A stretch of DNA of 64,000 nt, taken from positions 1,540,447 to 1,604,446 of the forward strand of contig OZ253496.1 of the NCBI GenBank assembly GCA_965262115.1. The letters run 5' to 3'. This document shows positions 445 through 32,997 of the stretch, one piece after another. Origin of the DNA: Nitrospinales bacterium. GTDB lineage: Bacteria; Nitrospinota; Nitrospinia; Nitrospinales; VA-1. A model generated the notes under the pieces. It did not search any database. It saw nothing but the letters and a program-made list of their open reading frames with translations, and was not told the origin of the DNA. Numbering within the stretch: the stretch's first letter is position 1; every line of letters starts with the position of its first letter. A program made the translations under genes and the position numbers.

Positions 445-3024
<2,580 letters not shown>

Positions 3025-3029
<5 letters not shown>

Positions 3030-3235: not shown

Positions 3236-3271
3236 ATCACAGCTCAATCAGGCCATCCAGCGGGCTGCTGG
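3236..3271. repeat. Direct repeat copy 2: the authentic thiG 3' end
   Basis: ATCACAGCTCAATCAGGCCATCCAGCGGGCTGCTGG. It contains the thiG stop codon (3239-3237). Confidence 0.9.
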
Positions 3272-4019
3272 CTGAGGCATAAAGTTTTTTAGGGATGCGT
3301 CCGGCTTCATAAGCCAGTCGGCCGGACTCCACCGCCATTTTCATAGCTAATGCCATCTTGTACGGCTCTTTCGCGCTGGCGATGGCAGTGTTCATCAAGA
3401 TTCCTGAAACGCCGAGTTCCATGGCGCGGCTGGCATCGGAGGCGGTGCCAACCCCGGCATCGATGATGACCGGCACCTTGACCGCTTCTAAAATCAGTTT
3501 GATGTTATACGGGTTGCGAATGCCGAGGCCGGAGCCGATCGGCGCCGCCAGTGGCATGACTGCGGCGCAACCGATGTCTTCGAGTTTTTTGCAGAGCACG
3601 ACATCGTCGGTGCAATAAGGCAGAACATGAAAGCCGTCTTTGACTAATAGTTTAGAAGCCTCCAGCGTGGCTTCGTTGTCGGGGAACAGAGTTTTCTCGT
3701 CACCGATGACTTCTACCTTGACGATGTTTCCCAGTCTCGCTTCCCGCGCCAGTTCGCAAGTCATCACCGCCTCTTTCAGCGTGTAGCATCCGGCGGTGTT
3801 GGGCAGAAAAGTGTATTTTTTTGGGTCGAGATGATTGAGTATGGAGTCTTTATTTTTGTCCAGCTCAATGCGGCGAACGGCGACCGTCACAATTTCGGCG
3901 CCGGAAATTTCGATAGCCTGTCGGGTTTCGTCGAAGGATTTATATTTCCCGGTCCCTACAATCAGCCTGGACTTGAAGGTCTTGTCGCCAATTTTCATGA
4001 ATTCTTGTTTTGTGTTCAT
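3237..4019 (-). CDS. thiG: Thiazole synthase ThiG
   Basis: 260-aa ORF with typical ThiG sequence ([12 protein letters not shown]..., [14 protein letters not shown]). Confidence 0.95.
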
Positions 4020-4400: not shown

Positions 4401-4414
4401 TATCTATTGTAAGA

Positions 4415-4510
4415 TGGCCTCACTTCCCTTCGCTGGCATGATCCAGATCAGGTTCAAAGGGTCGTCCTGTTTTAGGACTCTCAGTTCAAAAACGCCCCCA
4501 GTGTTCGTGA
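4415..4510 (-). promoter_or_regulatory. TPP (THI-box) riboswitch aptamer
   Basis: The minus strand contains CUGAGA ... ACCCUUUGAACCUGAUCUGGAUCAUGCCAGCGAAGGGAAG, the canonical THI-element core. It lies upstream of thiS. Confidence 0.9.
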
Positions 4511-4579: not shown

Positions 4580-5774
4580 GCACATTATGTTTCCCACACT
4601 CCTGTTGCGCGTTTTGTTAATGGTTCTCCTTTTTGGGATCAGTGGTTGCGTCACCCGCTCGGCGCCTGTAAATCCCCATTTTGAGATGCCACCCGAGAAT
4701 CTGCCTAAAGCGCAGCTGGAGCTGTATAACCGCGCCATGGCGCAACTAAAAAACAATCAACTCGACAACTCGATTGATCTCTGGAAACAGTTTTTGCAAA
4801 ACAACCCGAGGTCGTTCAGGGGCCATAACAACCTTGGCATGGCGTTTTATTCCAGTGACCAACTGGCACCCGCCGTGACCTCTTTTGAAACCGCTCTGGC
4901 TCTGGAACCTTTTGACACTAAGATCAAGGATAATCTGAAAAGAGCATTACGGTTTCAGGTCACAATTTTGCGGGAGAACAAGGATTTTGAAACAGCTATC
5001 GAGCATCTCGAAAGGGTGAAAAAACTCACCGATCTTGGGGGAAAAGAGAAAGTGGCGCTGAAGATAGAAACCCTCCAGGACCTTATCTACGAGCAGGTCA
5101 AGCGGGCCAACACGTTGGAAGATTATGAAGCGTTTGTGGCGAAATATCCCGACAACCCGAAAAACTCTGATGAGGCCCGGCGTCTGATTGCCAAAATTAA
5201 GCCGGAAGAATCCCTGTTGGGAGAATTTCCGGAAATGCAGGGAGACATGTTGCCCGACCCTGTGCAACGAACCACCCAGACCCGAGAGGAGGTTTTTGTC
5301 CCCGAGCCGATGGGAGAGAGCCGTGTTCCTATTGCTTCCGCGCCTGTGCGCAGGGAATCGATAGAAATCGTGGCGGAAACAAAACGGTCTGTTGATGAGG
5401 AAGAGTTTTTCGAGGAGACACTGGATGAGAGGTTGGAACCTGTGGTGGAAGAAGCTACGCCAAAATCGTCAGCAATGGAGCGGCCTCAAAGAACCGAACC
5501 GATTGTGGATCCGGATATGGAAATGAAACGGGAAACACCTTCGATTGCCGCTCCGGTCGAGGAACCTGTGCCAACAAAACGGGTGCGGGTCACGACCCAA
5601 AATGCCTCGCTTCGAGTGTGGGCAAAACCGGATGCCCGGTCTACAGTGATGTCCCAGATCCCCAAAAATTCGGTTGTGCCGGTTTTTCAGGATACCGACA
5701 AGTGGTTCCAGATTGAGTACCAAAAAGGCAAGAAGGGCTGGATCTCCAAAAAATATTCCCGGCTGGTAAATTAA
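4578..5774 (+). CDS. Lipoprotein with TPR repeats and a C-terminal SH3b domain
   Basis: 398-aa ORF with signal peptide and lipobox (LLFGISGC). TPR-like N-terminal half, acidic linker, SH3b-like C-terminus (ASLRVWAKPDARS...WFQIEYQKGKKGWISKKY). The start could be 4587. Confidence 0.7.
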   Translation: MHIMFPTLLLRVLLMVLLFGISGCVTRSAPVNPHFEMPPENLPKAQLELYNRAMAQLKNNQLDNSIDLWKQFLQNNPRSFRGHNNLGMAFYSSDQLAPAVTSFETALALEPFDTKIKDNLKRALRFQVTILRENKDFETAIEHLERVKKLTDLGGKEKVALKIETLQDLIYEQVKRANTLEDYEAFVAKYPDNPKNSDEARRLIAKIKPEESLLGEFPEMQGDMLPDPVQRTTQTREEVFVPEPMGESRVPIASAPVRRESIEIVAETKRSVDEEEFFEETLDERLEPVVEEATPKSSAMERPQRTEPIVDPDMEMKRETPSIAAPVEEPVPTKRVRVTTQNASLRVWAKPDARSTVMSQIPKNSVVPVFQDTDKWFQIEYQKGKKGWISKKYSRLVN

Positions 5775-5923
5775 CCCCCTTCATCCAATTAGCTGATTCC
5801 TCCATCCATTACTGGATGTTATCCAGAAGTGTTGTTTGCTGTGATTCGAGTTGACCCGGTTTGACCGCATGAATATAATCCGTTATTGGCAGGTAATTTA
5901 GATATCGAACTATTTGGAGAATT

Positions 5924-6891
5924 ATGGCAACGATTGATAAGGAAGAACTGGATGCATTGATCCAGAGCGAGTGGGATTATCTGGAATCCAAAAGAGGCGA
6001 GTGGAGCCTTCTTGAAGGGAAACAGGATATGGAAGTGCTGGAACATGTCTTGCGCTGTATCCTGCATATGGATTTGACCGAAGAAAAACCCCGCGAATTC
6101 AAAGAGTGCGTCAAGGTGCAAAACCCGGATGGCGGCTGGTCTAAAGAATCCCACACCGAAAAACTTCGATGTGGATCACGACTTTTGTTGGGCTCAAACT
6201 CTGCCGGGGTAATATGGCTCTCAAAGATCCGGAAATTCAAGTGACCGTTGATAAGACTCTGGAATATGTCCTGTCCATGCAGGAAGAAGACGGGCATTGG
6301 TCCGATGCTGAATGGTCTCATCTGGATACGACCTGTTCGGTCACGTGCTTTCTGACCATCTATCAGGTCACTCAGGACAAGACCGATGACGAACGCATCA
6401 ACAAAGCTCGTGTTAGAGGCTTCGAGTTTATCAAGGAATGGCAAAAGGATTCAGGACTCTGGAAAGATGAAACGTTCCATCCGGCAGGTATCGAAACCAC
6501 GGCGCATTTAATGCAGTACACTCTGGTTCCCGCCTACTTCATGGACAAAATCGAGTATGCCGGAAAAATGTGCATGCAGGCGGCCGACTCCCTCGTGGCG
6601 GAACAAGCCGCAAACGGCAGTTGGGATAATGAAAATAATGACCACACCATGGATGCCTGTCGTAACCTGATGCTGGTGTCGGACACCTTCAAGGATAAGG
6701 AAAAATACACGCCGATTATTGAAAAAGGGGTGCGCTGGCTGATCGATATTAAAAATGAGCAGGGCTGGGGAGACTTCCCCGAGGAACCGAGCAACGTGGA
6801 ACGCAGCGCAGATGGACTGGATACCCTGCTCAAATACCGGCGCTACTGCTCCAGCAAACCGATGTCCGATTTCTGGGCTTTTTCTAAATAA
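5924..6891 (+). pseudogene. Prenyltransferase / squalene-cyclase-repeat protein, split by a frameshift at an A5 run
   Basis: ORFs 5924-6244 and 6169-6891 overlap in different frames. Both carry the repeated D-G-[GH]-W / NGSW / QGWG motifs of terpene-cyclase-like repeats. One extra A at 6159-6163 would read ...SHTEKTSMWITTFVGL... continuously. Confidence 0.6.
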
Positions 6892-6904
6892 CCCCTTCAG
6901 TATT

Positions 6905-7062
6905 CGTCATCGCGAGCGACTGTGTGAAATTCTTCATTTGCCTTCATGCCCCGAAGGGGTAAAAGGAGCGTGGCGATCCAGACTTCTGGATTTACCCTTT
7001 CAGGGCACGAAAGCTTGGGAAGAATATCTCGGCTTCGTCGCTGTTGGCTCCTCGCAATGACG
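6905..7062. mobile_element. MITE-like element, family B, longer copy
   Basis: Same termini as 3071-3189 (CGTCATCGCGAGCGAC ... GCTCCTCGCAATGACG) and a near-identical first ~75 nt. It has an extra ~39-nt internal segment. Confidence 0.7.
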
Positions 7063-7114
7063 TGCTATGCAAGGGTTTCCCTGTCAAGGGGTGTCAAGCT
7101 GGTAGAGGTTTTTT

Positions 7115-7870
7115 GTGGAAGCAATCATATTACTTGCCGGTTACGGCTCACGTCTGGATCGGCAAGATCTTGCTCATAAAGCGCTGCTGCCTTTCGGCGA
7201 GGAGACACTGCTTTCCCGCCACTTGAAATGCCTCAAAGCTCTGGGCATTCAGAAAACCCATCTCATCCTGGGTCATAATGCTCCGGTGCTGAAATCCTAT
7301 GTGCAGGAACTCAACCTCGATCTGCCGGTACATTTCATTGATAACCCGGTCTACCGCACCACCGGCAACACATTGTCGATGGTGATGGGACTCAAACACT
7401 GCCAGGACGAAACATTGATTCTCGATGGCGATGTATTGTATCCGCCCGAGGCCCTGCTCAATTATGTCCAAAAAGCGTCGCGCTCTTCATTTGCGTTGAT
7501 ACCTGCTGATATCGACGACGCTGAATGCGCGAAAGTATTGTTGAATCCATCAGGAACCATCCACGCTTTCATCACCAAACGAGAACTGACCGACGAGGAA
7601 AAATCCGGTTTCAGTTTTGGTGGCGAGGCTATAGGATTTTTCATGCTGCGCCAGGAAGATGTCCCCCGGTTTGTCGCCCTGTATGAAAATAATGAGTCCG
7701 CCTACCGACCCGTCCTTTGGGAAATCCCGTTCACCGAGTTTGCCCGAAACACCTCCCTGCATCCCTGGAACGTTGAGGAAGAAGGCTGTTTTGAAATAGA
7801 CACCCAAGAGGACTACTCCACCGCATTGAAGCGCTTTCAATCCCACCCGGATCAATACCAGCTCCCATAG
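7115..7870 (+). CDS. Nucleotidyltransferase (NTP_transferase fold; sugar-phosphate or phosphocholine cytidylyl/uridylyltransferase-like)
   Basis: 251-aa ORF with a GTG start. The N-terminal AIILLAGYGSRL matches the G-x-G-x-R-L nucleotide-binding signature. Confidence 0.65.
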   Translation: MEAIILLAGYGSRLDRQDLAHKALLPFGEETLLSRHLKCLKALGIQKTHLILGHNAPVLKSYVQELNLDLPVHFIDNPVYRTTGNTLSMVMGLKHCQDETLILDGDVLYPPEALLNYVQKASRSSFALIPADIDDAECAKVLLNPSGTIHAFITKRELTDEEKSGFSFGGEAIGFFMLRQEDVPRFVALYENNESAYRPVLWEIPFTEFARNTSLHPWNVEEEGCFEIDTQEDYSTALKRFQSHPDQYQLP

Positions 7871-8124
7871 CTAATAAAGTACAAATAAGTTAAAAAACTG
7901 TATGATTTTTAACATTTTATATTATTAATTATAATAATTTATCAGTTTTTGGATAAATTTAAATTTTTGTTTAAATTTTTTCTCAGTTTTTAAGAAAAAT
8001 TTCCTCTTTAAATACAAAAGGTTAGATACATCTCTCCCAAGTCCTCCCGAAAACTTTTGTTTATTGGTATCTTTTTTACTTTTTAATTGTGGTTCCCAGG
8101 ATTTAAGGAAACCGGTTTTGATCC

Positions 8125-8649
8125 CTAACTTTGAAGCGACTTAGAGACTTTGATCAATTGGTCCGACAATTTGCGAATGCGCTGTTCGATTTCAGGATCG
8201 GCCAGGTTGTCTCCTTCAAAAGCCGCACCTGTAACGTAAACGAATCGGGGCAGGACGATACATCGAAAGTCCAGCATCAGGCTGTTAGCCAGGCTCATGA
8301 TGGACATATAACTGCCTTGTCCTCCAGCGGCACAAAGAAACCCCACCACCTTATCTTCCCAACTTTTTCCGGTAAGCTCGATCAGGTTCTTCGCGGCGGC
8401 ATTGGCATCGTAGTTATAAATGGGGACGGAAAGCAAAATCCCCTCAGCTTTTTTAACTCGTTCAGCAACAGATATTACCTCCGGTTGTGCGTAAGCCGAA
8501 TCTCCATCACAAAGAGGTAAGGGAATATCCTTTAGAGACATAAAATCTACCGTTGCACCTGCTTGACGTAGTGCTTCCTCGGCCTGTTGTGCCAGGACAC
8601 GGCTACGGCTTTCAGGGTTGAGACTACAGGCCACAATTAAATAAGACAT
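8125..8649 (-). CDS. NAD(P)H-dependent FMN reductase family oxidoreductase
   Basis: 174-aa flavodoxin-like ORF (MSYLIVACSLNPESRSR..., SVPIYNYDANAAAKN). Confidence 0.75.
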   Translation of the reverse strand: MSYLIVACSLNPESRSRVLAQQAEEALRQAGATVDFMSLKDIPLPLCDGDSAYAQPEVISVAERVKKAEGILLSVPIYNYDANAAAKNLIELTGKSWEDKVVGFLCAAGGQGSYMSIMSLANSLMLDFRCIVLPRFVYVTGAAFEGDNLADPEIEQRIRKLSDQLIKVSKSLQS

Positions 8650-8754
8650 TTATTTCTCCAGATTCAAAATGGTTATCACGGAAATGATTCAAATCTTTTC
8701 CCGTTGGCTTTCCATCTTATTTACAGTATAAAATTCCAGTTATAAAATTTAATT

Positions 8755-9480
8755 TTGGGAAATTTTCCATTGCCTTTATCGTCTTATAAAGCGGTTTTTT
8801 TTGATGTCGGGGGGACTCTGATCCACGTTCACCCGTCGGTCGGGGATGTCTATGCCCGACACGCCCGCCCCTTCGGCTATTCGGGTTCTGTCGAGGTTTT
8901 AAACGAAGAGTTTCGCGCGCAATGGAAGAAAATGGGGGGTATCGAGTCTTTGGGCAATCAGAGCGGAGCCGAAGCGGAAAGAAATTTTTGGCGCAAATTG
9001 GTTTATGAGGTGTTTCAACCGCTGGGAGGGCTCGACCGGTTTGAAGAATACTTTGATCTCATTTTTGAGGCGTTTCGAGAGAAATCCAACTGGCGCGTTT
9101 ATGAAGATGTGATCGAATCAAAAATTCTCGAAACTCTGAAAAAAAGAGGCGTGGTGTTGGGGGTCATTTCTAACTGGGACTCGCGGTTGACCTCCACCCT
9201 GGAAAATATTGGTCTCGCGCGGTATTTTGATTTTATCTTACCCTCTGCTGTGGTCGGTTCGGCAAAGCCCGATAAAAAAATATTTGAGGAAGCGTTAAGA
9301 CGAAGTGGTGTCCAGCCTCATGAAGCCTGCCATATCGGCGATGAAATGCGAACCGATGTAGATGGGGCCCAGGCGGCTGGTATACATCCTATCCTGCTGG
9401 ACCGGGACAACCGTTTTGACTTGGCGGGAGTGACGAAAGTTGCTTCCCTTAGAGAACTGAATCCGTCGGCTGAATTGTGA
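8755..9480 (+). CDS. HAD-superfamily hydrolase (subfamily IA)
   Basis: 241-aa ORF with motif I FFDVGGTLI and a later GDEMRTD motif. TTG start. Confidence 0.75.
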   Translation: MGNFPLPLSSYKAVFFDVGGTLIHVHPSVGDVYARHARPFGYSGSVEVLNEEFRAQWKKMGGIESLGNQSGAEAERNFWRKLVYEVFQPLGGLDRFEEYFDLIFEAFREKSNWRVYEDVIESKILETLKKRGVVLGVISNWDSRLTSTLENIGLARYFDFILPSAVVGSAKPDKKIFEEALRRSGVQPHEACHIGDEMRTDVDGAQAAGIHPILLDRDNRFDLAGVTKVASLRELNPSAEL

Positions 9481-9505
9481 AGCGGGGAAAGTGGATAGGC
9501 GGCTT

Positions 9506-9670
9506 TTAAGCCTTATAGCCTTTTATGCCATCCAGTTTAGCATTTTTAAAGCTGGCGTCTTTAGTATCGGCTTTGGTCAAGTCTGCTTTGGAGAGATCCG
9601 CCCCATGGAAAGAGACGGCGTTGAGGTCGGCCTCCCTCAAATTGCTACTGACCAGAGATGCGAAGGTCAT
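9506..9670 (-). CDS. Pentapeptide-repeat ORF; stand-alone 54 aa, or a C-terminal domain of the upstream membrane protein
   Basis: Eight tandem A(D/N)LxX-type pentapeptides (NLREA DLNAV SFHGA DLSKA DLTKA DTKDA SFKNA KLDGI). There is no clear SD before the ATG at 9670. The frame is linked to the upstream ORF through an A10 run. Confidence 0.5.
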   Translation of the reverse strand: MTFASLVSSNLREADLNAVSFHGADLSKADLTKADTKDASFKNAKLDGIKGYKA

Positions 9671-11168
9671 GCCGACCGTTTTTTTTTTGCTTTTCCCGGA
9701 ATTCCAGAGCCAATAAAAAATAAAAAGGGAGATACTCCACCCAGGGGATCCATGGGCTAAATGCTTGAAGTTCTTGATAATCAAAATAAAAGTCGAGGTA
9801 ATAAAGGCCCACCAGTCCGGTCAATACCATCCACGACCGCGCGGGGAAGATACACAAAAATGGCACCACCCAGCAGAGATACCACGGGTTCTGCACCGGA
9901 CTGAGGAGAAATACCAAAGCCATGATCCAGAAAAGCCCGCGAACAAATTCTTCGGGTTGTTGAAGGAGAGAAGCCCCCTTAACCAGTAACCAGAATAAAA
10001 CCCCGATTAATGTAAGGGCCACTGTAACCTTGCTCAGAAAAATTGGCAGGGGATTGGAAAAAATCGTTTCACTCGCGAACCCACCCGACACATTGTTAAA
10101 GATGAAAACCAGAATAGCAAAAATGCTGTCGTTGCTCTGCCAGTACAGGCTGAAGGCTTTGAGTCCATCAAACATCTGCAATCCGATCCCCATAAAGGGT
10201 AGATACCCCAAAATGGCCACTCCGAGAAACAGACTGGTATTGCCGAAAGGAGTCAGCCAGGCTTTCCCCCCCGACTGGCGCATTTTTTCATAACCGGCCT
10301 TGAGGTATAGGGGAAGCAAAATCACGGGGTACAGTTTTCCCAGAAGGCCAAAGGCCAGAAACAGGGTCGCCAAGGTATGGCGGTGACAAAGCAAAAAATA
10401 AATGGAGCCAGTGAGCAGGGATATACCGATGATATCCAAATGGGTCGAGTTAAAAGTTTCCTTGATGATCAGAGGGCTCCAGAAATAAATCAGGCAAGCG
10501 GATTTATCTATCCCCAACCTCGAAAGAATGCCAACGATAAAAACTAAAGTCATGATGTCGAAAATTAAAAATCCGGAACGCAGGGCGACAATGCTGTCGG
10601 GTTTTATCTGATGCGCCAGGCGGAACACAAACTGCGCCATCGGTGGGTAGATGGTGGGCACATCTGGATGGTTCACCCGTTCCAAGTATTTAAGGGATTG
10701 GGGAGACGCCCATTTCAACGCATCCAGTTGTTCCAGTTCGCGCTCGTTGCGTTCAACATAAGTTTCATAATAGCTTTCTGGATTCTGAATCCTTAGCGCC
10801 TTGAAGTCGTGCGCTTCGGCGGGGGCGTATTCAAATGGATTGATTCCATTCGCGAATACTTTTCCATCCCATAAATAGCGGTAGACGTCATCTTCCTGAA
10901 TCTGCTGAGAGGGGAGGATGGCGGCACGAAACAACAGGCCGAACACGATGATCATCCAAAAACTGCCTGCGTCTCCGGGACGCTTGCGCACGATATACCA
11001 AGTGAGGCCATAAAGTGTACACAGGGAAAAATAAACAACAAGATAAGTGAGGAGGGGTCTTTCTGAATATCCCTCTCCCCAGTTGAATTGGTGGGAAAGC
11101 TGGGTCAGGAAACCATAAAGCAGGAGGCTGGCTGTCCCCGTTAACAGGATAGGGAGTCGGGAACGCAT
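9645..11168 (-). CDS. Polytopic membrane protein, GT-C-type glycosyltransferase-like (DUF2029/GT87-like)
   Basis: 507-aa ORF with many hydrophobic segments. It has an early loop motif DDVYRYLWDGKVFANGINPFEY, typical of this family. Confidence 0.55.
   Translation of the reverse strand: MRSRLPILLTGTASLLLYGFLTQLSHQFNWGEGYSERPLLTYLVVYFSLCTLYGLTWYIVRKRPGDAGSFWMIIVFGLLFRAAILPSQQIQEDDVYRYLWDGKVFANGINPFEYAPAEAHDFKALRIQNPESYYETYVERNERELEQLDALKWASPQSLKYLERVNHPDVPTIYPPMAQFVFRLAHQIKPDSIVALRSGFLIFDIMTLVFIVGILSRLGIDKSACLIYFWSPLIIKETFNSTHLDIIGISLLTGSIYFLLCHRHTLATLFLAFGLLGKLYPVILLPLYLKAGYEKMRQSGGKAWLTPFGNTSLFLGVAILGYLPFMGIGLQMFDGLKAFSLYWQSNDSIFAILVFIFNNVSGGFASETIFSNPLPIFLSKVTVALTLIGVLFWLLVKGASLLQQPEEFVRGLFWIMALVFLLSPVQNPWYLCWVVPFLCIFPARSWMVLTGLVGLYYLDFYFDYQELQAFSPWIPWVEYLPFYFLLALEFREKQKKNGRHDLRISGQ
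9679..9688. repeat. Homopolymer T10 (A10 on the coding strand)
   Basis: Counted directly. It lies where the 507-aa ORF frame and the pentapeptide frame overlap. Confidence 0.95.
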
Positions 11169-11174
11169 ACCCGG

Positions 11175-12043
11175 CTAGGGATTGTGGGCAAAAGAGCTCT
11201 GCCCCTCCAGGGTTTTCAACTCTTCGATTTCTTGATCTGCAAGAATTTTATAAATATCCAGAACGCTTCGGTGTACATAGGGATCGTCATTTTTCAAGGC
11301 CAGGGCAGACCAGTAGCGGGAAAGGGCCTCCCGGAACATTTTTTTCTTCTTATACAAGTCCCCGAGTTTGACATAAATTTCCAACCGCTTTGGTTCCAGA
11401 ACTGAAACCCTTTCAAAATAGTTCGCGGCCTCAAAATAATCTCCCGACCGTTTATATTCTTCAGCCAGAGCTTCCAGATAAGCAGGGTTCTCTGCTTCCA
11501 GATCAATGGATTGTTTCAGGTGCTCAATGCCTTGAGCAAACTTTTCCCGTTTCAGGTGCAACCGCCCCAGCCGATAGTGGGTGAGAGCATGTCGGCTATC
11601 AATACTCAAGGCCTTGAGATATTTTTGCTCCGCCTCGGCAAACTTTCCTTCCCGCTCCTTGAACTCTCCCAATCAGGATTTTTATTTGCCGCAGTTTCAA
11701 GTTGCCTGAAAGCCTCGTCCCGGTTTCCCTTGTTGTAATGAATTCCCGCCAGGTTAATGCGGCTGAAAGTGTCTTCGGTGATTTTCAGGATATCCCGGTA
11801 AAGGTTTTCGGCCTGGTCGGTCTTGTCCTGGTCCTGATATACAATGGCCAGGTTGTACATAGAGAAGGTGTCGTTGGGGTTTTTCCGGAGTGCCAGGTTG
11901 TACTCTTCAATGGCTTTGGCCAGTTCCTGATTGTCGTAGTGCTCCACGCCTTTGTTGAAGTGGCTGTCGATAGGAGCGGGAACATTGGCGCAGCCGAAGA
12001 AAAATAAAGCCGCTATTATAACCCCGTTGTTTATTTTAATCAT
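11175..12043 (-). pseudogene. TPR-repeat lipoprotein split by a 1-nt frameshift
   Basis: ORFs 11606-12043 (lipobox FFFGC, TPRs) and 11175-11672 (TPRs) overlap. Reading ...AANKNPD then LGEFKEREGKFAEAEQ restores a regular TPR pattern if 1 nt is added near 11666-11672. Confidence 0.55.
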
Positions 12044-12049
12044 CGTTGT

Positions 12050-13165
12050 CTAATTGCCGGATACTTTGTCCAGCCGTTTCATCCGGATGTTGGCTTGTCC
12101 GGGAGCAGTGGCCTCCGCGGGTGGAACGGGCACTTCATCAGATTTGCGAATCAGTTTCCAGGGGTTCCGTTTCAAGTCTTCGGTCAGGGATTTCAGGTTT
12201 TGCGATGTTTCGTTCATGTTCTGGATAAGTTGAAGCAGGTTTCTGCGGTTTTCCACCATGATGGAGTTGCCCTGGCCGAGAGTCTGTTCAACGCTCGTTG
12301 CGGTGCGGTCTATATCGATGGTGATTTCCCGTGCGTTCGTTTCCATACTATTGATCAAACTGGTTACACCCGGTCGCGTGTCAGCAAGCAGGATTTCCAT
12401 TTCCCGCGTCAGGTTATGAATCTGATCGATGATTTTGCGGATGTCCTTATCCTTGTCGGTGAACAGCTTGTCGGTTTTTTCTGAAACCGAAGCCACATGG
12501 TCGAAAGTGGATTGCAGTTTGCCGCTGTTTTTATCCAGCATGTCGGAAACCTTTTCGGAAATCTCCAGGGCATTTTCCATATTGGCCCGGATATATTTGC
12601 GGTTTTCTTCCAAGATCGTATCGACATTTGCGAGAGAGGTTCGAACATCTTTTAATGTGGCACGGGCATCGGTAACAAGTTCCCCTGTCAGTTGGGTAAA
12701 ACGCCGGATCTCCAACACCACCTCGGTAGCCATGTCGCCAATTTTAGCGATTTCAAACGAGTCCTCCCCAATCAACTCCTCATTGTCCTCTAAAGGTGGT
12801 GACCCTTGCGTACCGGGCCGCACGTCTATATAAAGCCCTCCCATCAGTCCGGAAGTTTTGATCATGGCGACGGAATTCTTTTTGATGATGATCTGAGGGT
12901 TGATTTCGGCCATCACTACCACTCGGTCATGGCCCTGATCATCCCCTAGCAATTCTATGTCCCTGACCGAGCCAATATCGAGCCCGGCATAACGTACCGG
13001 CGCGCCCACTTCCATCCCACCCGTAAAATTGAACACGATACGCAACATCTTCATGGGTTTGAAATAATCCTTAATATCGCCCAACACGAAGATCATTACG
13101 ATCAAAACCACCATGCTGACGAAAATAAAAAACCCGGCTTTAACTTCTGAGGAACGATATTCCAT
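12050..13165 (-). CDS. mlaD: MlaD / MCE-domain protein of the Mla-type lipid ABC transporter, with a long helical C-terminal extension
   Basis: 371-aa ORF with an N-terminal TM segment followed by an MCE domain (VRYAGLDIGSVRDIEL). Confidence 0.8.
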   Translation of the reverse strand: MEYRSSEVKAGFFIFVSMVVLIVMIFVLGDIKDYFKPMKMLRIVFNFTGGMEVGAPVRYAGLDIGSVRDIELLGDDQGHDRVVVMAEINPQIIIKKNSVAMIKTSGLMGGLYIDVRPGTQGSPPLEDNEELIGEDSFEIAKIGDMATEVVLEIRRFTQLTGELVTDARATLKDVRTSLANVDTILEENRKYIRANMENALEISEKVSDMLDKNSGKLQSTFDHVASVSEKTDKLFTDKDKDIRKIIDQIHNLTREMEILLADTRPGVTSLINSMETNAREITIDIDRTATSVEQTLGQGNSIMVENRRNLLQLIQNMNETSQNLKSLTEDLKRNPWKLIRKSDEVPVPPAEATAPGQANIRMKRLDKVSGN

Positions 13166-13168
13166 AGA

Positions 13169-13975
13169 TCAGGCTCGACTCATTTCTTTAAGTTCTTCCC
13201 CATAATCTGTCTGGCTTTTGCTGAACGGAATGGGTCCGTCCGGACTGCCTTCAATAAACTGGATCACTTTTGGGTCATCGCTGTTCCTGATTTCCTCCGG
13301 CGTACCCTCCGCGATGATCTTGCCTTTGAAGAGCATAATAATTTTATCCGAAATACGCATGGCGCTGGGGATTTCGTGCGTGACCACCACCGAGGTGATG
13401 CCCATTTTCCTGCTGAGGTCCATGATCAACTTGTCAATCACGCCAATGGAAATTGGATCCAGTCCCGCCGATGGCTCATCATAAAAAACAATTTTTGGAT
13501 CGAGAGCGATGGCCCGGGCCAGGGCAATGCGTTTGATCATGCCGCCGGAAAGTTGGGCTGGCTTGAGGTGCTCCGCTCCTCTTAGCCCGACCATTTCCAG
13601 TTTCATCTTAACCATGATAAGAATGGTGCCCTCGTTGAGGTCGGTATGCTCCCGCATGGGCAAGGCGACATTGTCCTCCACCGTCAGGGAGTTGAACAAG
13701 GCTCCGCTTTGGAACATGATGCCAAACTTTTTGCGGACACGATTGATCTCCTCGCCCTTGAACTGGCTGACTTCTTCGCCATCAATCCAAATTTCTCCCG
13801 AGTCGGGGCGATAAGCCCCTATTAAATGTTTGAGGACGGTGCTTTTGCCACTGCCACTGCCGCCAATGATGGAAGTGATCTGGCCTTTCTCCATGTGCGC
13901 GTTGAAATCTTCCAGAACAGTGATGCGCTGGTCGCCTTCTCCAAACGATTTTTTCAGGTTCTTGATTTGTATCAT
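13169..13975 (-). CDS. mlaF: ABC transporter ATP-binding protein MlaF
   Basis: 268-aa ORF with Walker A GGSGSGKST, signature LSGGM and Walker B VFYDEP. Confidence 0.85.
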   Translation of the reverse strand: MIQIKNLKKSFGEGDQRITVLEDFNAHMEKGQITSIIGGSGSGKSTVLKHLIGAYRPDSGEIWIDGEEVSQFKGEEINRVRKKFGIMFQSGALFNSLTVEDNVALPMREHTDLNEGTILIMVKMKLEMVGLRGAEHLKPAQLSGGMIKRIALARAIALDPKIVFYDEPSAGLDPISIGVIDKLIMDLSRKMGITSVVVTHEIPSAMRISDKIIMLFKGKIIAEGTPEEIRNSDDPKVIQFIEGSPDGPIPFSKSQTDYGEELKEMSRA

Positions 13976-14793
13976 CAGAGTACAAAGAAAAATAAGGATG
14001 TAAATATCAGATCGGCGATGATCACCAAAATCATCGATACCACCACGGCCGTGCGGGTGTTCTGCCCGACCATTTCCGCTCCGCCTTCAATAACGAAGGC
14101 CATATAACTGCCAACCATGACAATAATGACAGCAAATACTGCACTCTTGATCAGCCCGGTCACGACATCCTTCATCACCATGGCGTCCAGGGAGTTGTTG
14201 ACATAGGTCACCGGGTCGATTCCCAACGTGGTGACGCCAATCAAAAACCCGCCTAATATCCCCATCAAGTCTGCCATGATGGTCAGGCAGGGGAGCATGA
14301 TTAAAAGAGCGATAAACCGGGGAGTGATTAAAAACTTAACGGGATCCAACGCCATGATCTCAAGGGCCAGCACTTCATCGGAAACCTTCATCGTCCCCAT
14401 TTCGGCGGTGAACGCGGCCCCAACCCGTCCAGACATGACCAGTGCCGTCATCAACGGCCCCAGCTCACGCAAAATGGCAACCCCCACCAATGCGCCAACA
14501 AACTCCAAGGCCCCCAACCGGCTCAACTGGTGTGCCGACTGAAACGCAAGAATGACCCCGATCAGAAACGAAACCAGAAAAACAATGGTGGTGGACTTGA
14601 CCCCAACCTCTTCCATCTGTGTCCACACCGGACGCCATTTATTGGGTTTGCCGCGCAAGGGTTCTATGAAGGTGCAATATAAAGTGGAACGGGTGAGATA
14701 ATACAACCCGCTGATTTCCTTGAAAAAATTTTCCAAGACATCAGTGAGCTCGAATCCCCTTCTCCCTATAAACCCGAAAAATGATCTGACCAT
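13975..14793 (-). CDS. mlaE: ABC transporter permease MlaE
   Basis: 272-aa polytopic ORF of the MlaE/Ttg2B type. It overlaps mlaF by 1 nt. Confidence 0.85.
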   Translation of the reverse strand: MVRSFFGFIGRRGFELTDVLENFFKEISGLYYLTRSTLYCTFIEPLRGKPNKWRPVWTQMEEVGVKSTTIVFLVSFLIGVILAFQSAHQLSRLGALEFVGALVGVAILRELGPLMTALVMSGRVGAAFTAEMGTMKVSDEVLALEIMALDPVKFLITPRFIALLIMLPCLTIMADLMGILGGFLIGVTTLGIDPVTYVNNSLDAMVMKDVVTGLIKSAVFAVIIVMVGSYMAFVIEGGAEMVGQNTRTAVVVSMILVIIADLIFTSLFFFVL

Positions 14794-14929
14794 GAAAATG
14801 CTAATGCCCGTTAGAAATGGAACAAAAGGTTAACGAACCCGCATCACGATTCTCACGTACAAGGTCCTCATCTAGAAGCGCAACAAATGTTGTTCGCTCT
14901 AAAAGGCCTCAACTCACTGCCTGCGGAGG

Positions 14930-15265
14930 CTACTCCGTAAGGGCTTGTTCTTTTGTGTCGAAAACTTCAAACACGCTTAACAGACGTGCGATCTCAAACA
15001 CGTCCTTGACGCCGGGGTTCAAAGCCGCAAGGCGGAATTTGTTCTTGCTGTTGTGGCTCCATTGCAAGCCTTCCACAAGAGTGGCGATGCCAGAGCTGTC
15101 AATGTAGGAAACTCCTGATAAATCCACAACGATGACCTTATTGTTGTTCTGAAAAAGAGGAGCCAAAGCATCTCTAACTTTGGTCGAAGAACTCATGTCG
15201 ATATCGCCAGTAACTTCGAGGGTCACCGTATCCCCGGCTTTATCCAGTTTTAAATCTATACTCAT
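14930..15265 (-). CDS. STAS-domain protein (anti-sigma-factor antagonist SpoIIAA/RsbV-like; possible MlaB analogue)
   Basis: Start chosen at the internal ATG at 15265 (SD AGAGG; 2 nt after the kinase stop). It has the motif DLSGVSYIDSSGIATL containing the conserved phosphorylatable serine. Confidence 0.8.
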   Translation of the reverse strand: MSIDLKLDKAGDTVTLEVTGDIDMSSSTKVRDALAPLFQNNNKVIVVDLSGVSYIDSSGIATLVEGLQWSHNSKNKFRLAALNPGVKDVFEIARLLSVFEVFDTKEQALTE

Positions 15266-15267
15266 AG

Positions 15268-15705
15268 TTACCTCTTGTCCTGTGTCGACGTCAGTCCGGT
15301 TCTTAATTTTTTTATCATGGTCAGCAATGTGCCCTTGGCCCGGTTGGTGCAATAGCTGACCTCATCCATAATTTCATTCATGAAATGGGTGCCCAGTCCA
15401 CCCGGTTTTACATCCCCCAGGCTCCGCGGTTTTATCTGGTCAAGATCGCATTGTTTGCCGTAGTCGCGAATCTGAACTTTGAAGTTATCCTCTTCAATGG
15501 TGAAGGTGGCCTCAATCAGTTCATCGCAGGAACCTTCGTAACTGTGCTTGATCACGTTCGCGCAGGCCTCATCGACACAAAGGATCAGGCGGCGGGCTGT
15601 ATCCTCGGGCACATCATGGCTGTCCAAAAGCTCCTGCAAAACTTTACGAATCAATCCCAGGTATTTCGGGTCACTCGGTATAGAAAGTTTGATGGGTTGG
15701 GGCAT
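15268..15705 (-). CDS. RsbW/SpoIIAB-like serine protein kinase (HATPase_c anti-sigma regulatory factor)
   Basis: 145-aa ORF with N-box EACANVIKH and G-boxes DYGKQ...GGLGTHFMNEIMDEV. Confidence 0.8.
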   Translation of the reverse strand: MPQPIKLSIPSDPKYLGLIRKVLQELLDSHDVPEDTARRLILCVDEACANVIKHSYEGSCDELIEATFTIEEDNFKVQIRDYGKQCDLDQIKPRSLGDVKPGGLGTHFMNEIMDEVSYCTNRAKGTLLTMIKKLRTGLTSTQDKR

Positions 15706-15869
15706 AGGTCCTCGCTGGTATTAATTTAAAACTATTATAACGATCAAACCCCCGTTATTTCAATCATATCACCCACTGACGCGGGGAGCAATGGGCAATA
15801 GGTATAAAGCGGTCAGGTGTTGTTGAAGGCTGAAAAAGTCGAGTTAGTTGTCTGTGGCGCCTTGCTGCT

Positions 15870-16329
15870 TTATAAGGCTTTAAAGGTCAGGGAGGTGAGG
15901 TCGTCGAACTGGGGGGCGTCGCCGATGAATTGTTTGATGGAGGTTTCCAGATTTTGCAGGAATTCTTTCGCTTGGGCGGTATTGTCGGCAAACAGGTTTT
16001 TCAACCGATCGACTCCGAATTCCTTCTGCTGTTTGTTTTTGGGTTCGGTCACTCCATCGGTGAAAATAAGAATCTCGTCCCCGCTTTTAAGGCAATGTTC
16101 TTCCTGGCTGTATTGCATATGCACCCTCATCGACCAGCAATAAACTGCAGGCATCGGCATTCATGACTTTTTTGGCAACATTCATGATGGTGTCGAGAAG
16201 ATTGGCGAGATTCGGTTCGGAATTGATCAGGGAGGTGATTTTGTAGCAGGTTTCCAACTGGTCGATCCGCCGTTCCATTTGGGCCAGCCGTGAATCTGTG
16301 GAAGGCAATGCGTCTTTATCTGTACTCAT
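15870..16329 (-). pseudogene. Remnant of a GAF-PP2C (RsbU/SpoIIE-type) phosphatase with an internal deletion plus frame change
   Basis: ATG at 16329 with SD GGAGGA. The N-terminal coiled coil and the start of a GAF domain (...VMNADACSLLLVDE) join out of frame to a PP2C C-terminus only (...GDEILIFTDGVTEPKNK...FDDLTSLTFKAL). About 150 codons remain; intact homologues have roughly 380 or more. Confidence 0.65.
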
Positions 16330-16519: not shown

Positions 16520-16840
16520 ATGGACAGAAAGCTAAAACAAAGCTCAAGCGGGAACTGGTCAGAAATTAGGTCGGTTCTTTTTCAGTCTCTTCCTGATGAA
16601 ATGTTTTCCAAGGCGAATCAACAGGAATGGCTGACCTATCATTGGAACCTGGTAGTGGGAAAAGAAATTTCAGGGGTTTCCACCATTGACAAGGTGGCGC
16701 GGGGGATACTCCATGTACGGGTAGAGGGTAAGGAGTGGGTGCCAGTTTTGGATCTGTTAAAAAGCAAAATCGTGCAGGAAATAAATAGCAGGGCAGGTGA
16801 ACCGTTGTTAAACGGTATTGTGTTTAAGGCAGTGGCCTGA
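16520..16840 (+). CDS. DUF721 (DciA-like) protein
   Basis: 106-aa ORF with the pattern W..VVG..I...T....V..GIL.V.V....W, typical of DUF721. Confidence 0.6.
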   Translation: MDRKLKQSSSGNWSEIRSVLFQSLPDEMFSKANQQEWLTYHWNLVVGKEISGVSTIDKVARGILHVRVEGKEWVPVLDLLKSKIVQEINSRAGEPLLNGIVFKAVA

Positions 16841-19681: not shown

Positions 19682-20580
19682 TGACAGCGTCTAGCGTTTC
19701 TTTTAAGACCCCGGCAAAAGTGAATCTGGGGCTCCATATTCTTGGCAAGCGTGAAGACGGTTTTCATGAACTCGAAACCCTGTTTCAAATGGTGAACTGG
19801 TGTGACGAGATTAAGTTGGAACGTCTTTCGTACGGATTGGAGTTGGTCTGCAACCAGCCGGATATTCCTGCCGATGAAGGCAATCTGGCTATAAAAGCCG
19901 TCCGCCTGTTAGAAACGCACTATTCTGATCGCTGTAAGGGTGTAAGAATCCATTTAAAGAAAAACATTCCCCATGGGGCCGGGTTGGGGGGAGGCAGTGG
20001 CAATGCCGCCGGGGTTTTGCTGGGACTCAACTTTTTGTGGGATTTGCAAATAAAACGGAAAGACCTGATTCTTATAGCTTCCGAACTGGGTTCGGATGTG
20101 CCTTTTTTCCTGCTTTCCCCCTGCGCTATTGGAAGGGGTCGGGGAGAAATTCTCGAATCGGTAAAAAGTTCCATTAGATTTTATGTTTTAATGGTTTACC
20201 CGGGGTTTGCCGTGTCCACGGCGATGGTTTATGGAAATCTAAAATTGAATTTGACAAAGCGGGAAAATAATATTAACATTTTGAAAAATTTTCTCTTGCA
20301 GTCGGAGTTTGCCCAATTGGGGGCGGCCTGGTCCAATGATTTGGAACCCGTTGTATTTCAAGAGCATCCGGGTATTTCTGAGATAAAAAAAGAGATGCTT
20401 GCTTTGGGAGCAAAGGGGGCGCTCCTTTCAGGAAGTGGCTCCACTGTCTTTGGTATTTTCGACAATCCCGAAACAGCGAAAAGTGCGTACGCCCGGTTGG
20501 AGAGAGGGGAATTCCGGCTGTTTTTAGCTGAAAGCGTTGCCAGTTTATCCGAATTATATCCTGAGGAAATGTTGTGTTAA
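19678..20580 (+). CDS. ispE: 4-diphosphocytidyl-2-C-methyl-D-erythritol kinase IspE
   Basis: 300-aa GHMP kinase with [23 protein letters not shown] and the P-loop-like [14 protein letters not shown]. Confidence 0.9.
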
Positions 20581-20622
20581 CGACCACCCTAGCGCATTGG
20601 TGCGGATTGGGTTTTTATACTT

Positions 20623-20698
20623 TGGGGCGTCGTCAAGTGGCTAAGACACAGGATTTTGATTCCTGCATTCGGAGGTTCGAGTCCTCCCGCCCCAGCCA
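20623..20698 (+). tRNA. tRNA-Gln (anticodon UUG), CCA encoded
   Basis: Manual cloverleaf: acceptor TGGGGCG/CGCCCCA, anticodon stem CAGGA/TCCTG with loop TTTTGAT, T arm GGAGG-TTCGAGT-CCTCC. 76 nt in total. Confidence 0.9.
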
Positions 20699-20723
20699 GA
20701 TTTTTACGGGGATTATTTATAGA

Positions 20724-21689
20724 ATGTATTCCAGCGATAATGGGCGGTTGCTTGTTTTTTCAGGTAGGGCCAATCCGTCCCTGGCGGAGGATATTTGTAA
20801 ATATCTTAAAGTTTCTTTAGGGAAAACGGTGGTCCGTGATTTCTCCGACAAGGAGATTTATGTGCGGATCGAAGAAAATGTTCGCGGCGGAGATGTTTTT
20901 GTTATTCAGCCGACTTGTTATCCCGGCAATACCAATTTGATGGAATTACTGATCATGATCGATGCCTTGCGCCGGTCATCAGCAAAAAGGATCACGTCGG
21001 TGATCCCTTATTATGGTTACGCGCGCCAGGATCGCAAATGCGAACCCAGGGTGCCAATCACCTCCAAGCTGGTTGCCGATTTGCTGGAAACGGCTGGAAC
21101 GGACCGGGTGTTGACTCTCGATCTTCATGCCGGACAGATACAGGGTTTTTTCAATATTCCCGTGGATCATCTGTTTGCCATGAATGTTCTGATTGAATAT
21201 ATCCGCACACTTGCTTTACCAAATTTGATTGTTATTTCACCCGATGCGGGAGGGGTGGAACGGGCCAGGGCATATGCCAAAAGGCTGAATACCTCTTTGT
21301 CCATTATCGATAAGCGCAGGTATATTCCGAACGAAGCCAAAGCCATGAATATTATTGGTGACGTGAAGGACAAGGTAGCGTTTATTGTGGACGATATGAT
21401 TGATACTGCGGGAACCCTCATGGAAGCGACCGATGCGTTGCTGGGGGTGGGCGCTAGCGAGGTTCATGCCTGTTGTTCTCATGCGGTTCTTTCCGGTCCT
21501 GCGGGGGAGCGAATCAGTAATTCTCGGATCAAGTCGGTGGTGACGACAAACAGCATTCCCTTAACCAACGGGTTAGAAAAAAACCCGAAGATCAAGGTGC
21601 TCACGGTCGCGCCGTTGTTGGGAGAAGCTATTTTAAGAATTCACGAAGAAACCTCGGTCAGTTCGTTATTCGATTCAACCCGAGAATAA
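20724..21689 (+). CDS. prs: Ribose-phosphate pyrophosphokinase Prs
   Basis: The ORF track starts at 20574 and would overlap tRNA-Gln. The ATG at 20724 gives [24 protein letters not shown]..., a typical Prs N-terminus. PRPP-binding loop [10 protein letters not shown]. Confidence 0.9.
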
Positions 21690-32079: not shown

Positions 32080-32997
32080 ATGAAGGCATCCGAAAAAAGA
32101 AAAAAAGTTCATACCGTAAAAGGTGAAAGCCCCTTAATAGATACTCCGTTCACACAGATATACTTGGGAGACTGTGCGGAACAGTTGCAAGATATTGACA
32201 GTAGCTCTATAGATTTAATCGTTACCTCTCCGCCTTATGCCGACCAACGGAGTAAAACCTACGGTGGTATCACGCCAGACAATTATGTTGAATGGTTTTT
32301 GCCTGTTTCCGCAGAGCTATTACGAGTACTAGAGCCTACGGGGACCTTTATCCTCAACATAAAAGAAAAGGTTGTAAATAGTGAGCGCCATACCTATGTT
32401 TTAGAACTCATCCTTGCTATGCGCAAACAGGGTTGGTTGTGGACAGAAGAGTTTATCTGGCATAAGAAAAATTGTTATCCCGGCAAATGGCCCAATCGGT
32501 TTAGAGATTCCTGGGAGCGTTTGTTGCAATTTAACAAAAATCGCAAATTTAAGATGTTTCAAGAAGAAGTCATGGTGCCAACGGGAGATTGGGCCAAGAC
32601 CCGGCTTAAAAAACTGAGCGAGACAGATAAGACCCGTGACGAATCAAAAGTGGGTAGTGGCTTTGGAAAAAATATTTCAAACTGGACGAACAGGGATAAA
32701 GCCTATCCTACAAATGTTTTGCAAATGGCAACGGAATGTAGCAATAAAAGCCACAGTGCCGCTTTTCCACCTACTTTGCCAGAGTGGTTTATCAAGCTTT
32801 TTACTTCGGAAAATGATGTTGTGCTTGACCCTTTTGCGGGTTCAGGAACGACTCTGAAAATTGCCAAGCGAATGAATCGGCATGCGATTGGTATTGAAGT
32901 TAATAAAGACTATTACGATCATATTTTAGAAGATTTGGATGAAAGACAATATTTTTTAATGGAAGAGTCCAAAAAATATGTCGCAAATCGTTCTTGA
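32080..32997 (+). CDS. Beta-class N4/N6 DNA methyltransferase; SPPY motif suggests N4-cytosine
   Basis: 305-aa ORF. Motif IV (IVTSPPYADQR) lies near the N-terminus and motif I (DPFAGSGTT) near the C-terminus, which is the beta permutation. G+C is visibly lower than in the flanks. Confidence 0.8.
   Translation: MKASEKRKKVHTVKGESPLIDTPFTQIYLGDCAEQLQDIDSSSIDLIVTSPPYADQRSKTYGGITPDNYVEWFLPVSAELLRVLEPTGTFILNIKEKVVNSERHTYVLELILAMRKQGWLWTEEFIWHKKNCYPGKWPNRFRDSWERLLQFNKNRKFKMFQEEVMVPTGDWAKTRLKKLSETDKTRDESKVGSGFGKNISNWTNRDKAYPTNVLQMATECSNKSHSAAFPPTLPEWFIKLFTSENDVVLDPFAGSGTTLKIAKRMNRHAIGIEVNKDYYDHILEDLDERQYFLMEESKKYVANRS

Follow-up and report, generated by a model that had tools for sequence, protein, structure and literature searches.

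A partner-switching kinase and STAS protein encoded with the MlaE-MlaF-MlaD lipid transporter in a marine Nitrospina and in at least seven phyla

Introduction

In Escherichia coli and Pseudomonas aeruginosa, the genes for the permease MlaE, the ATPase MlaF and the MCE-domain protein MlaD of the MlaFEDB transporter are co-encoded with exactly one small STAS protein, MlaB. The same is true of the locus described here, which lies in a 64,000-nucleotide (nt) stretch of contig OZ253496.1 from a Nitrospinales bacterium (assembly GCA_965262115.1, positions 1,540,447 to 1,604,446; hereafter the window, with coordinates counted from its first letter). The two arrangements also share a Ser or Thr that starts helix alpha2 of the STAS protein (Ser57 here, corresponding to Thr52 of MlaB) and a C-terminal Tyr/Leu extension on MlaF. 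The present STAS protein nevertheless falls outside the MlaB family and has a fifth strand and a fourth helix, both of which MlaB lacks; its gene stands 5' of mlaE, whereas mlaB is the last gene of mlaFEDCB; and it is accompanied by a kinase gene and, ancestrally, by a phosphatase gene, with a long MlaD and no mlaC seen in the cluster. In E. coli, MlaB contacts the helical subdomain of MlaF, whose association and activity depend on it. The interface of the two proteins is centred on MlaB Thr52, and the T52E substitution weakens binding; Tyr261, Leu265 and Leu266 of the MlaF extension pack between the two proteins (PMC7367683). Phosphoregulation of MlaB through Thr52 has been hypothesised, with no kinase or phosphatase known in E. 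coli (Thong 2016, PMC5016091; Kolich 2020, PMC7367683; both eLife), and the operon bears on the post-translational regulation of MCE lipid transporters.

Another closely related kind of system is the partner switch of Bacillus subtilis, represented by SpoIIE-SpoIIAB-SpoIIAA-sigmaF and RsbU/P-RsbW-RsbV-sigmaB. With these the operon shares a sensor PP2C, a HATPase_c_2 kinase and a DSSG-bearing STAS protein, adjacent kinase and STAS genes, and the STAS fold itself (TM-score 0.86-0.89 to RsbV and SpoIIAA). It differs from them in having MlaEFD downstream and no sigma gene in the operon, in a helix alpha2 sequence of its own, and in a kinase that scores below the RsbW and SpoIIAB cut-offs. Partner-switching modules with a non-sigma output include BtrU/V/W of Bordetella and, reportedly, SypE/SypA of Vibrio fischeri. 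A 2026 Anabaena preprint (HenR/All4160) argues that partner switching controls an enzyme directly. All three resemble the present case in that a phospho-controlled STAS protein or domain acts on a non-sigma target, but none targets an ATP-binding cassette (ABC) or MCE lipid transporter, and in none are the module and its presumed target united in one operon that is conserved over many phyla.

STAS domains are also associated with membrane transporters in SLC26/SulP proteins and next to, or fused with, MlaE-type (DUF140) permeases (Casali & Riley 2007; Thong 2016, PMC5016091). In SLC26/SulP proteins and STAS-MlaE fusions, however, the domain is covalently attached and comes without a dedicated kinase or phosphatase, while the STAS protein described here is free. 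The three-component MlaEFD of Veillonella parvula matches the locus in its mlaE-mlaF-mlaD order, long MlaD (371 residues here), absence of mlaC and non-proteobacterial host, and differs in that STAS, kinase and phosphatase genes precede mlaEFD here. The survey of Grasekamp 2023 (PMC10665443) found MlaB to be mostly proteobacterial and the other systems to be three-component MlaEFD, with kinases unmentioned, and a review of STAS-only proteins leaves Mla unmentioned. The first-pass annotation of the window had noted that it knew of no described natural example of partner switching in control of a lipid ABC transporter, and full-text literature searches combining partner-switching and Mla terms likewise found no prior description of a partner-switching set with an mlaEFD operon. 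What is new is therefore the joining of two known kinds, a partner switch and an Mla transporter, and not a new category.

Gene order and its conservation

A PP2C remnant, a kinase, a STAS protein and mlaE-mlaF-mlaD had been annotated head-to-tail on the minus strand of the window, and this order stood with its coordinates and strand intact, with Pfam and NCBIfam in agreement. The kinase gene (15268-15705) encodes a 145-residue RsbW/SpoIIAB-type serine kinase (HATPase_c_2, PF13581, E = 5e-29, 101 bits). Its stop codon, TAA at 15270-15268, is followed after 2 nt by the ATG at 15265 of a SpoIIAA/RsbV-type STAS gene (14930-15265, 111 residues; PF01740, TIGR00377), whose product carries VSYIDSSGIATL and retains the DSSG motif as D56-S57-S58-G59, Ser57 being the predicted phosphorylatable residue. 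A 136-nt spacer (14794-14929) then separates the STAS stop at 14930 from the mlaE ATG at 14793; both this and the 2-nt spacing were reproduced from the coordinates.

The MlaE permease (13975-14793, 272 residues) matched PF02405 at 243 bits and TIGR00056 at 233.5 bits, against a cut-off of 212.2. MlaF (13169-13975, 268 residues) is an ABC_tran (PF00005) ATPase with a C-terminal extension (…PDGPIPFSKSQTDYGEELKEMSRA), and MlaF was also its top NCBIfam match, at 277.7 bits against an E. coli-type equivalog cut-off of 441. MlaD (12050-13165, 371 residues) is a long MCE protein (PF02470, E = 1.5e-17; weak Mce4_CUP1 match; TIGR00996, 82 bits) built from a transmembrane segment, an MCE domain and a long helical tail, and it too lay below the E. 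coli equivalog cut-off (TIGR04430, 68.9 bits against 135). mlaE and mlaF overlap by 1 nt and mlaF and mlaD lie 3 nt apart, and the permease, ABC ATPase and MCE-domain protein within one operon identify an MlaFED or MCE-type ABC transporter. The claim that the mla cluster has a single STAS gene held, as tblastn returned no second STAS, kinase or PP2C gene within the 64-kb window. The absence of an adjacent sigma gene was borne out in the same way, with no match to a sigma-70-family gene at E<=1 across the 64 kb using hand-entered query sequences.

We then asked how far the arrangement recurs. A search with the STAS alignment, which covered a single genome for each GTDB species and picked candidates by two short peptide patterns, gave the 80 best STAS matches listed, which serve as the loci below (L numbers) and whose neighbour genes were called by tblastn with the window proteins; counts among these matches measure recurrence, not prevalence. 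mlaE lay immediately 3' of STAS on the same strand in 64 of 78 assessable loci, including every assessable locus of similarity rank 1-48, and a kinase gene lay immediately 5' of STAS in 63. mlaF was detected at 54 loci and mlaD at 46, the latter count being too low because mlaD is divergent and under-detected, while a sensor-PP2C gene stood upstream in 35 of 72 assessable loci. Among the matches listed, loci with mlaE made up 10/10 in Nitrospinota, 15/17 in Desulfobacterota plus 'delta', 17/19 in Acidobacteriota, 8/8 in Nitrospirota, 7/8 in Planctomycetota, 3/3 in Gammaproteobacteria and 1/1 in Alphaproteobacteria, against 0/6 in Leptospirales/Spirochaetota and 0/3 in Verrucomicrobiota. A lack of conserved adjacency in relatives had been set beforehand as a refuting outcome; the opposite was found, with the adjacency conserved in at least seven phyla.

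The kinase, STAS, MlaE, MlaF, MlaD order was found in each of L001-L009, and the version extended by a TPR protein gene occurs in Nitrospina contigs, Ca. Nitrohelix vancouverensis and other Nitrospinota, where it is kept despite a changed flank in L004 and L009. In simple open reading frame (ORF) calls, the kinase/STAS and STAS/mlaE junctions show apparent 4-nt overlaps in Desulfobacterota and gaps of 9-37 nt in several Nitrospinota. By Pfam, one Nitrospirota locus reads GAF-SpoIIE, HATPase_c_2, STAS, MlaE, ABC_tran, MlaD and ABC_trans_aux. Pooled Pfam scans of the loci listed (at most 116 upstream and 144 downstream neighbours) placed a TPR protein after mlaD in 18-20 loci or an ABC_trans_aux lipoprotein in 12, with flanks otherwise unrelated between phyla; the TPR gene 3' of mlaD is a feature of Nitrospinota and Desulfobacterota. 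Throughout the Mla-linked loci the gene adjoining mlaE is always STAS, and it stays there where the kinase is absent (L075, L080). Six Planctomycetota loci (L026, L042, L044, L048, L055 and L080) have STAS-mlaE followed by opposite-strand genes with no mlaF or mlaD detected nearby, and all but L080 have a kinase gene upstream; their ATPase and MCE genes must therefore be elsewhere.

Turning to sigma factors, a tblastn search with hand-entered queries covered ±8 kb around each of the 64 Mla-linked loci and found no SigB-like sigma gene, the lone sigma gene near them being an extracytoplasmic function (ECF) sigma 7 kb away in L086. As a positive control, the search recovered SigB-like genes about 2 kb from STAS in L084 and L089, two Leptospirales/Spirochaetota loci without mla. 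No sigma family appeared among the 25 commonest flanking Pfam families of the pooled upstream and downstream neighbours. Where Mla is absent, the neighbours identified by Pfam (ABC1 kinase, K+ channel, FHA, HAD) were unrelated, and the non-Mla STAS genes showed no other partner in common. Collectively, the kinase-STAS-mlaE adjacency is far beyond chance, and because the order is conserved across phyla, often with a sensor-PP2C in front and never with a SigB-type gene nearby, there is strong support for a functional connection of the partner-switching set with the transporter. STAS homologues of the window protein are named Nitrospina or Nitrospinaceae, and the window holds a marine Nitrospina copy of this widespread operon.

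The STAS protein

The first-pass annotation had proposed that the STAS protein is the MlaB equivalent, and its place as the sole STAS gene of the operon fits this while its family does not, although it may still act in the manner of MlaB. In sequence searches the protein scored 81.3 bits against TIGR00377 (anti-sigma-factor antagonist; cut-off 53.45) and 25.3 bits against NF033618 (MlaB; cut-off 90). Its nearest solved relatives by profile matching were TM1442, SpoIIAA and RsbV, and P. aeruginosa MlaB (7ch8_K) was matched at 21.9 bits (E = 1e-3). The AlphaFold2 model (pLDDT 89.9) has the full beta-beta-alpha-beta-alpha-beta-alpha-beta-alpha topology of SpoIIAA, with a strand at 100-102 and a helix at 105-109 following helix 3, and so departs from the minimal fold of MlaB, which is without the fifth strand and fourth helix. 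Its TM-scores were 0.91 to TM1442, 0.86 to RsbV and 0.89 to SpoIIAA (the last two kinase-bound), while E. coli MlaB came at rank 42 among structural matches, with a TMq of 0.63. Because both the family score and the fold speak against it, we rejected membership of the MlaB family.

Two other features are shared with MlaB. The protein is encoded by the sole STAS gene of an MlaFED operon, as MlaB is, and Ser57 places a Ser/Thr at the N-terminus of helix alpha2, as Thr52 does in MlaB; D56-S57 aligned with D51-T52 of E. coli MlaB (sequence hand-entered) at an hhalign probability of 91%. By motif, Ser57, the first serine after Asp56, also aligns with the phosphorylated Ser58 of SpoIIAA, and the DS[ST]G serine comes with an adjacent HATPase_c_2 kinase gene, as in anti-sigma-factor antagonists.

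The Mla-linked proteins are distinguishable as a group. Across phyla their helix alpha2 reads DSSGIA[TS][LF]VEGL[QK], as opposed to DSSGIG[AE]L[IV]S in non-Mla STAS proteins, and in a neighbour-joining tree they form one clade with phylum-coherent subclades, while the classical STAS proteins group with SpoIIAA. The STAS and kinase genes are under purifying selection (dN/dS 0.04-0.14), like mlaE and mlaF, and this result holds among marine Nitrospina without the phosphatase. Two orphan STAS proteins carry the Mla-type helix alpha2 and nest within the Desulfobacterota Mla-linked clade, one beside an ABC1/UbiB-type kinase gene (L066, 7899-10109) and the other beside a TrkA-type K+ channel gene (L069, 7932-9597).

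The kinase and MlaF

The kinase has a HATPase_c_2 domain with the N, G1 and G2 ATP-binding boxes, and the N-box DEAxxNxxxH, G1 RDxG and G2 PGGLG motifs are conserved in the 64 Mla-linked homologues. It lies below the equivalog cut-offs of both classical families, at 71.8 bits against 145 for RsbW (PRK04069) and 53.4 against 135 for SpoIIAB (TIGR01925). We ran a profile search over 1.84 billion representatives and inspected the best 150, among which are natural single-chain fusions of HATPase_c_2 followed by STAS (P0139, P0186, P0257 and P0270) and a protein with three STAS domains followed by a kinase domain (P0127). On the transporter side, the alignment of the window MlaF with P. aeruginosa MlaF continues through the C-terminal extension, and E. 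coli MlaF is matched over those residues too. At the C-terminus, 58 of 58 STAS-linked MlaF proteins had a [DE]Y..xL motif that corresponds to Tyr261/Leu265 of E. coli.

Loss of the phosphatase and other lesions

The annotated PP2C remnant was confirmed as two fragments, each in its own frame, that match the intact GAF-PP2C of a relative. The 5' piece (16087-16329, minus strand; ATG 16329, stop 16087) encodes an N-terminal coiled coil and the start of a GAF domain before a frameshifted tail, and within it 16284-16129 corresponds to residues 12-63 of the intact 431-residue GAF-SpoIIE phosphatase of L008 at 71% identity. The 3' piece (15870-16112, minus strand) encodes, in the other frame, the C-terminal ~80 residues of the SpoIIE/PP2C domain; its match, 16112-15873 inside ORF 15870-16160, corresponds to L008 residues 352-431 and covers positions 110-190 of the 192 in the Pfam SpoIIE profile (PF07228), short of a complete domain. 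Phosphatase residues ~64-351 are thus deleted. At the nucleotide level, the match to the intact PP2C genes of L012 and L013 stops at 16127, with ~845 nt missing relative to L013 6322-7178.

The intact gene occurs in L007/L008, L012-L016, L059 and others. In L007/L008, from a groundwater Nitrospinae metagenome-assembled genome, it encodes a GAF-SpoIIE protein of 431-523 residues and sits between the DciA and kinase genes. In L012, three small genes (182, 130 and 208 residues; 5710-7289) lie between the intact PP2C and kinase genes; this contig is labelled Emcibacteraceae yet is clearly Nitrospina-like, and is probably mis-binned. The sensor is GAF in L007, L008 and L059 and HDOD in L053, a gammaproteobacterial locus (5898-7580) where HDOD replaces GAF on the phosphatase, giving the same switch with a different sensor. 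In the closest relatives, L005 and L001, even the remnant is gone, so that the phosphatase gene shows three states within the Nitrospina family: intact, internally deleted (the window) and gone. Kinase and STAS are also kept without an adjacent phosphatase in several marine Nitrospina and in most Acidobacteriota and Planctomycetota. The dedicated kinase/phosphatase pair that had been proposed for this locus therefore survives in part: the kinase is present and the phosphatase is intact in relatives, but the phosphatase gene of the window is dead, which leaves the pair incomplete in this genome.

A second lesion affects the TPR protein gene 3' of mlaD (11175-12043, minus strand), which is called as two overlapping ORFs matching, in two frames, one protein of 297-299 residues in relatives. 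Relatives encode it as a single chain of 284-299 residues, and the window has a 22-nt deletion near 11671, where L005/L006 have CGGCTCATCCTCTGAGCGTTTT; this may be either a real frameshift or an assembly error. A gene for a protein of 168-169 residues with no Pfam match lies between the membrane-protein and HAD hydrolase genes in L001 (11764-12273), L004, L007, L011, L012 and L019; the window has no counterpart (~9480-9645), and in L005 the call is only a 51-residue remnant. Added to the lesions in the PP2C and TPR genes, this absence suggests gene loss in this Nitrospina lineage. In L005/L006 (GCA_001542995.1, 97% STAS identity), mlaE (6476-7295) and mlaD (8105-9221) are each called in two pieces, through either frameshifts or assembly errors.

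Other features of the window

Upstream, the cluster is bounded by the DciA gene on the plus strand (16520-16840). Its last gene in the Nitrospinota version is a membrane-protein gene (9645-11168, minus strand) with a faint match to the MptA_B glycosyltransferase family; it is kept after the TPR gene in L001, L004, L007, L011, L012 and L019 and was not found outside Nitrospinota among the loci scanned. A candidate sigma-70-like promoter lies 5' of the kinase gene (15734-15763, minus strand; TTGAAA, 18 nt, TATAAT; 11/12 consensus matches), in a segment (15798-15705) that is 92% identical in L005 and 81% in L001. Because such sites are no commoner in the region than in shuffles, we treat it as a lead only.

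The 136-nt spacer before mlaE is poorly conserved, and its equivalent elsewhere is 9-37 nt or an apparent 4-nt overlap. Within 14794-14929 we found no terminator-like site, no Rfam match and no significant fold (z = 0.14), and a riboswitch or attenuator was dropped as a candidate on these grounds and on the low conservation. A small hairpin, GAGCGAACAAC…GTTGCGCTTC (GCG..AAC/GTT..CGC; 14870-14900, minus strand), is common to the window, L005, L001 and L012.

The neighbouring genes are housekeeping, comprising thiamine synthesis with a thiamine pyrophosphate (TPP) riboswitch, ispE, prs, pth and an H+-pyrophosphatase. The riboswitch (4408-4509, minus strand, 70.8 bits) lies upstream of thiG-thiE-thiC (3237-4019, 2370-3029 and 445-2373). 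A tRNA-Gln (20623-20698) overlaps the 5' end of the prs ORF as mechanically called (20574-21689); since the Pfam match starts at residue 60, the true start of prs must lie further downstream. Further along, a GC dip to 0.40 marks a type II restriction-modification pair (32080-33727, plus strand; N6_N4 DNA methylase with EcoO109I-like endonuclease), which is probably a horizontally acquired islet. Three consecutive ORFs with PKD/Ig-like surface domains and an autotransporter beta-domain (50333-53123, plus strand, GC 0.565) may be one fragmented autotransporter gene.

Discussion

Given these observations, we favour, with a probability of roughly 0.55, a partner-switching cascade that is co-encoded with MlaE-MlaF-MlaD and acts on the transporter and not on a sigma factor. 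Like E. coli MlaB, unphosphorylated STAS protein would dock onto MlaF, using its helical face (helix alpha2, which begins at Ser57), and would stabilise or activate the MlaFE complex. The kinase would bind the same face and phosphorylate Ser57, upon which the STAS protein would leave MlaF and the transporter would be turned down; the phosphatase, its GAF or HDOD sensor domain receiving the signal, would then reset the STAS protein. Phosphorylation of Ser57 by the kinase and removal of the phosphate by the PP2C are predicted from homology, while the direction of control, in which unphosphorylated STAS supports the transporter, is suggested by analogy. With the phosphatase deleted, the STAS protein must be reset by another route in this genome, which may be a phosphatase encoded elsewhere, new synthesis, or a change in the kinase with ATP/ADP. 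RsbW/RsbV can respond to ATP/ADP.

Several points weigh against this proposal. The STAS protein is of the RsbV/SpoIIAA type by sequence and fold and is distant from MlaB, the protein by analogy with which a contact with MlaF is proposed. No STAS-MlaE or STAS-MlaF fusion was present among the 150 best representatives, where kinase-STAS and multi-STAS fusions do occur. In 6 of 7 Mla-linked Planctomycetota loci no mlaF was detected nearby. The MlaF extension is not specific to MlaB-containing systems, since the MlaB-less MlaF of Veillonella also has one (PMC10665443). The negative searches for sigma B/F-type and further STAS genes in this organism's own genome cover the 64-kb window, and the locus frequencies are not a census because candidates were selected by two peptide patterns and taken from the matches listed. 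Finally, with its PP2C pseudogene and frameshifted TPR gene, this copy may differ in its working from the ancestral one.

The alternative that survives best, though we consider it unlikely, is a classical partner switch whose sigma factor is encoded elsewhere, the kinase being the anti-sigma factor and the STAS protein its antagonist, with the sigma factor driving mlaEFD or an envelope-stress regulon. Both proteins do belong to the RsbV/RsbW-SpoIIAA/AB families by sequence and fold, and the search of the organism's own genome for a sigma factor was confined to the window. Gram-negative bacteria are known to have orphan partner-switching modules with no sigma gene beside them (Chlamydia Rsb). 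Against this, the ±8 kb around the 64 Mla-linked loci held no SigB-type gene, while the same search was positive at two non-Mla STAS genes. Moreover, STAS always abuts mlaE, often with an apparent 4-nt overlap, and remains there at the two kinase-less loci, and the whole block is kept over seven phyla with changing flanks, which is more than is usual for a trans-acting regulator.

We regard it as slightly less likely again that the kinase, and not the STAS protein, contacts the transporter, inhibiting MlaF or MlaE until unphosphorylated STAS relieves the inhibition by sequestering it. This arrangement would leave the logic of a classical partner switch unchanged, MlaF or MlaE standing where the sigma factor does, and it fits the conserved kinase-STAS-mlaE order; the kinase-STAS fusions likewise indicate a tight complex between those two proteins. 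We know of no precedent, however, for an RsbW-type kinase binding an ABC ATPase, and it is STAS that invariably adjoins mlaE, in some loci with no kinase at all. The STAS protein MlaB, by comparison, is a proven MlaF partner (PMC7367683).

An improbable reading is that the system is a decaying relic in this genome, in which the kinase and STAS protein regulate nothing and mlaEFD is constitutive. The ~845 nt and the reading frame lost from the PP2C gene, the frameshifting 22-nt deletion in the TPR gene, and the absence of the 168-residue gene from the window and L005 would all be expected of such decay. The kinase and STAS genes are nevertheless intact, with catalytic motifs and Ser57 retained. 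Their dN/dS, measured against relatives in which the phosphatase is likewise missing, is 0.04-0.14 and resembles that of mlaE and mlaF, and many loci keep both genes without an adjacent phosphatase. Chance or purely syntenic adjacency with no functional link is effectively refuted: conserved order within one family proves little by itself and the 136-nt gap of the window could hold a separate promoter, but at least seven phyla show this order, with differing flanks and apparent gene overlaps, and the Mla-linked STAS proteins form their own clade.

Significance

The operon revises the published picture of non-proteobacterial Mla as a bare three-component MlaEFD, and a natural operon with a kinase, a phosphatase and a STAS protein of the phosphorylatable type makes the idea of MlaB phosphoregulation directly testable. 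Should the proposed action on the transporter be true, the few known non-sigma targets of partner switching would be joined by an ABC transporter, and this would be the first natural case of an ABC transporter under such control. Within Nitrospina, the series in which the phosphatase gene is intact, deleted or gone shows that the module persists without an adjacent phosphatase. More tentatively, and with somewhat less confidence than for action on the transporter itself, an ancient and large class of MCE/Mla systems outside the model Proteobacteria may be gated after translation by a full partner switch, with the reversibly phosphorylated STAS protein as a detachable, MlaB-like subunit of MlaF and a sensor phosphatase setting its state. 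If so, E. coli MlaB, which comes without a kinase, would be a reduced relative of the partner-switched arrangement.

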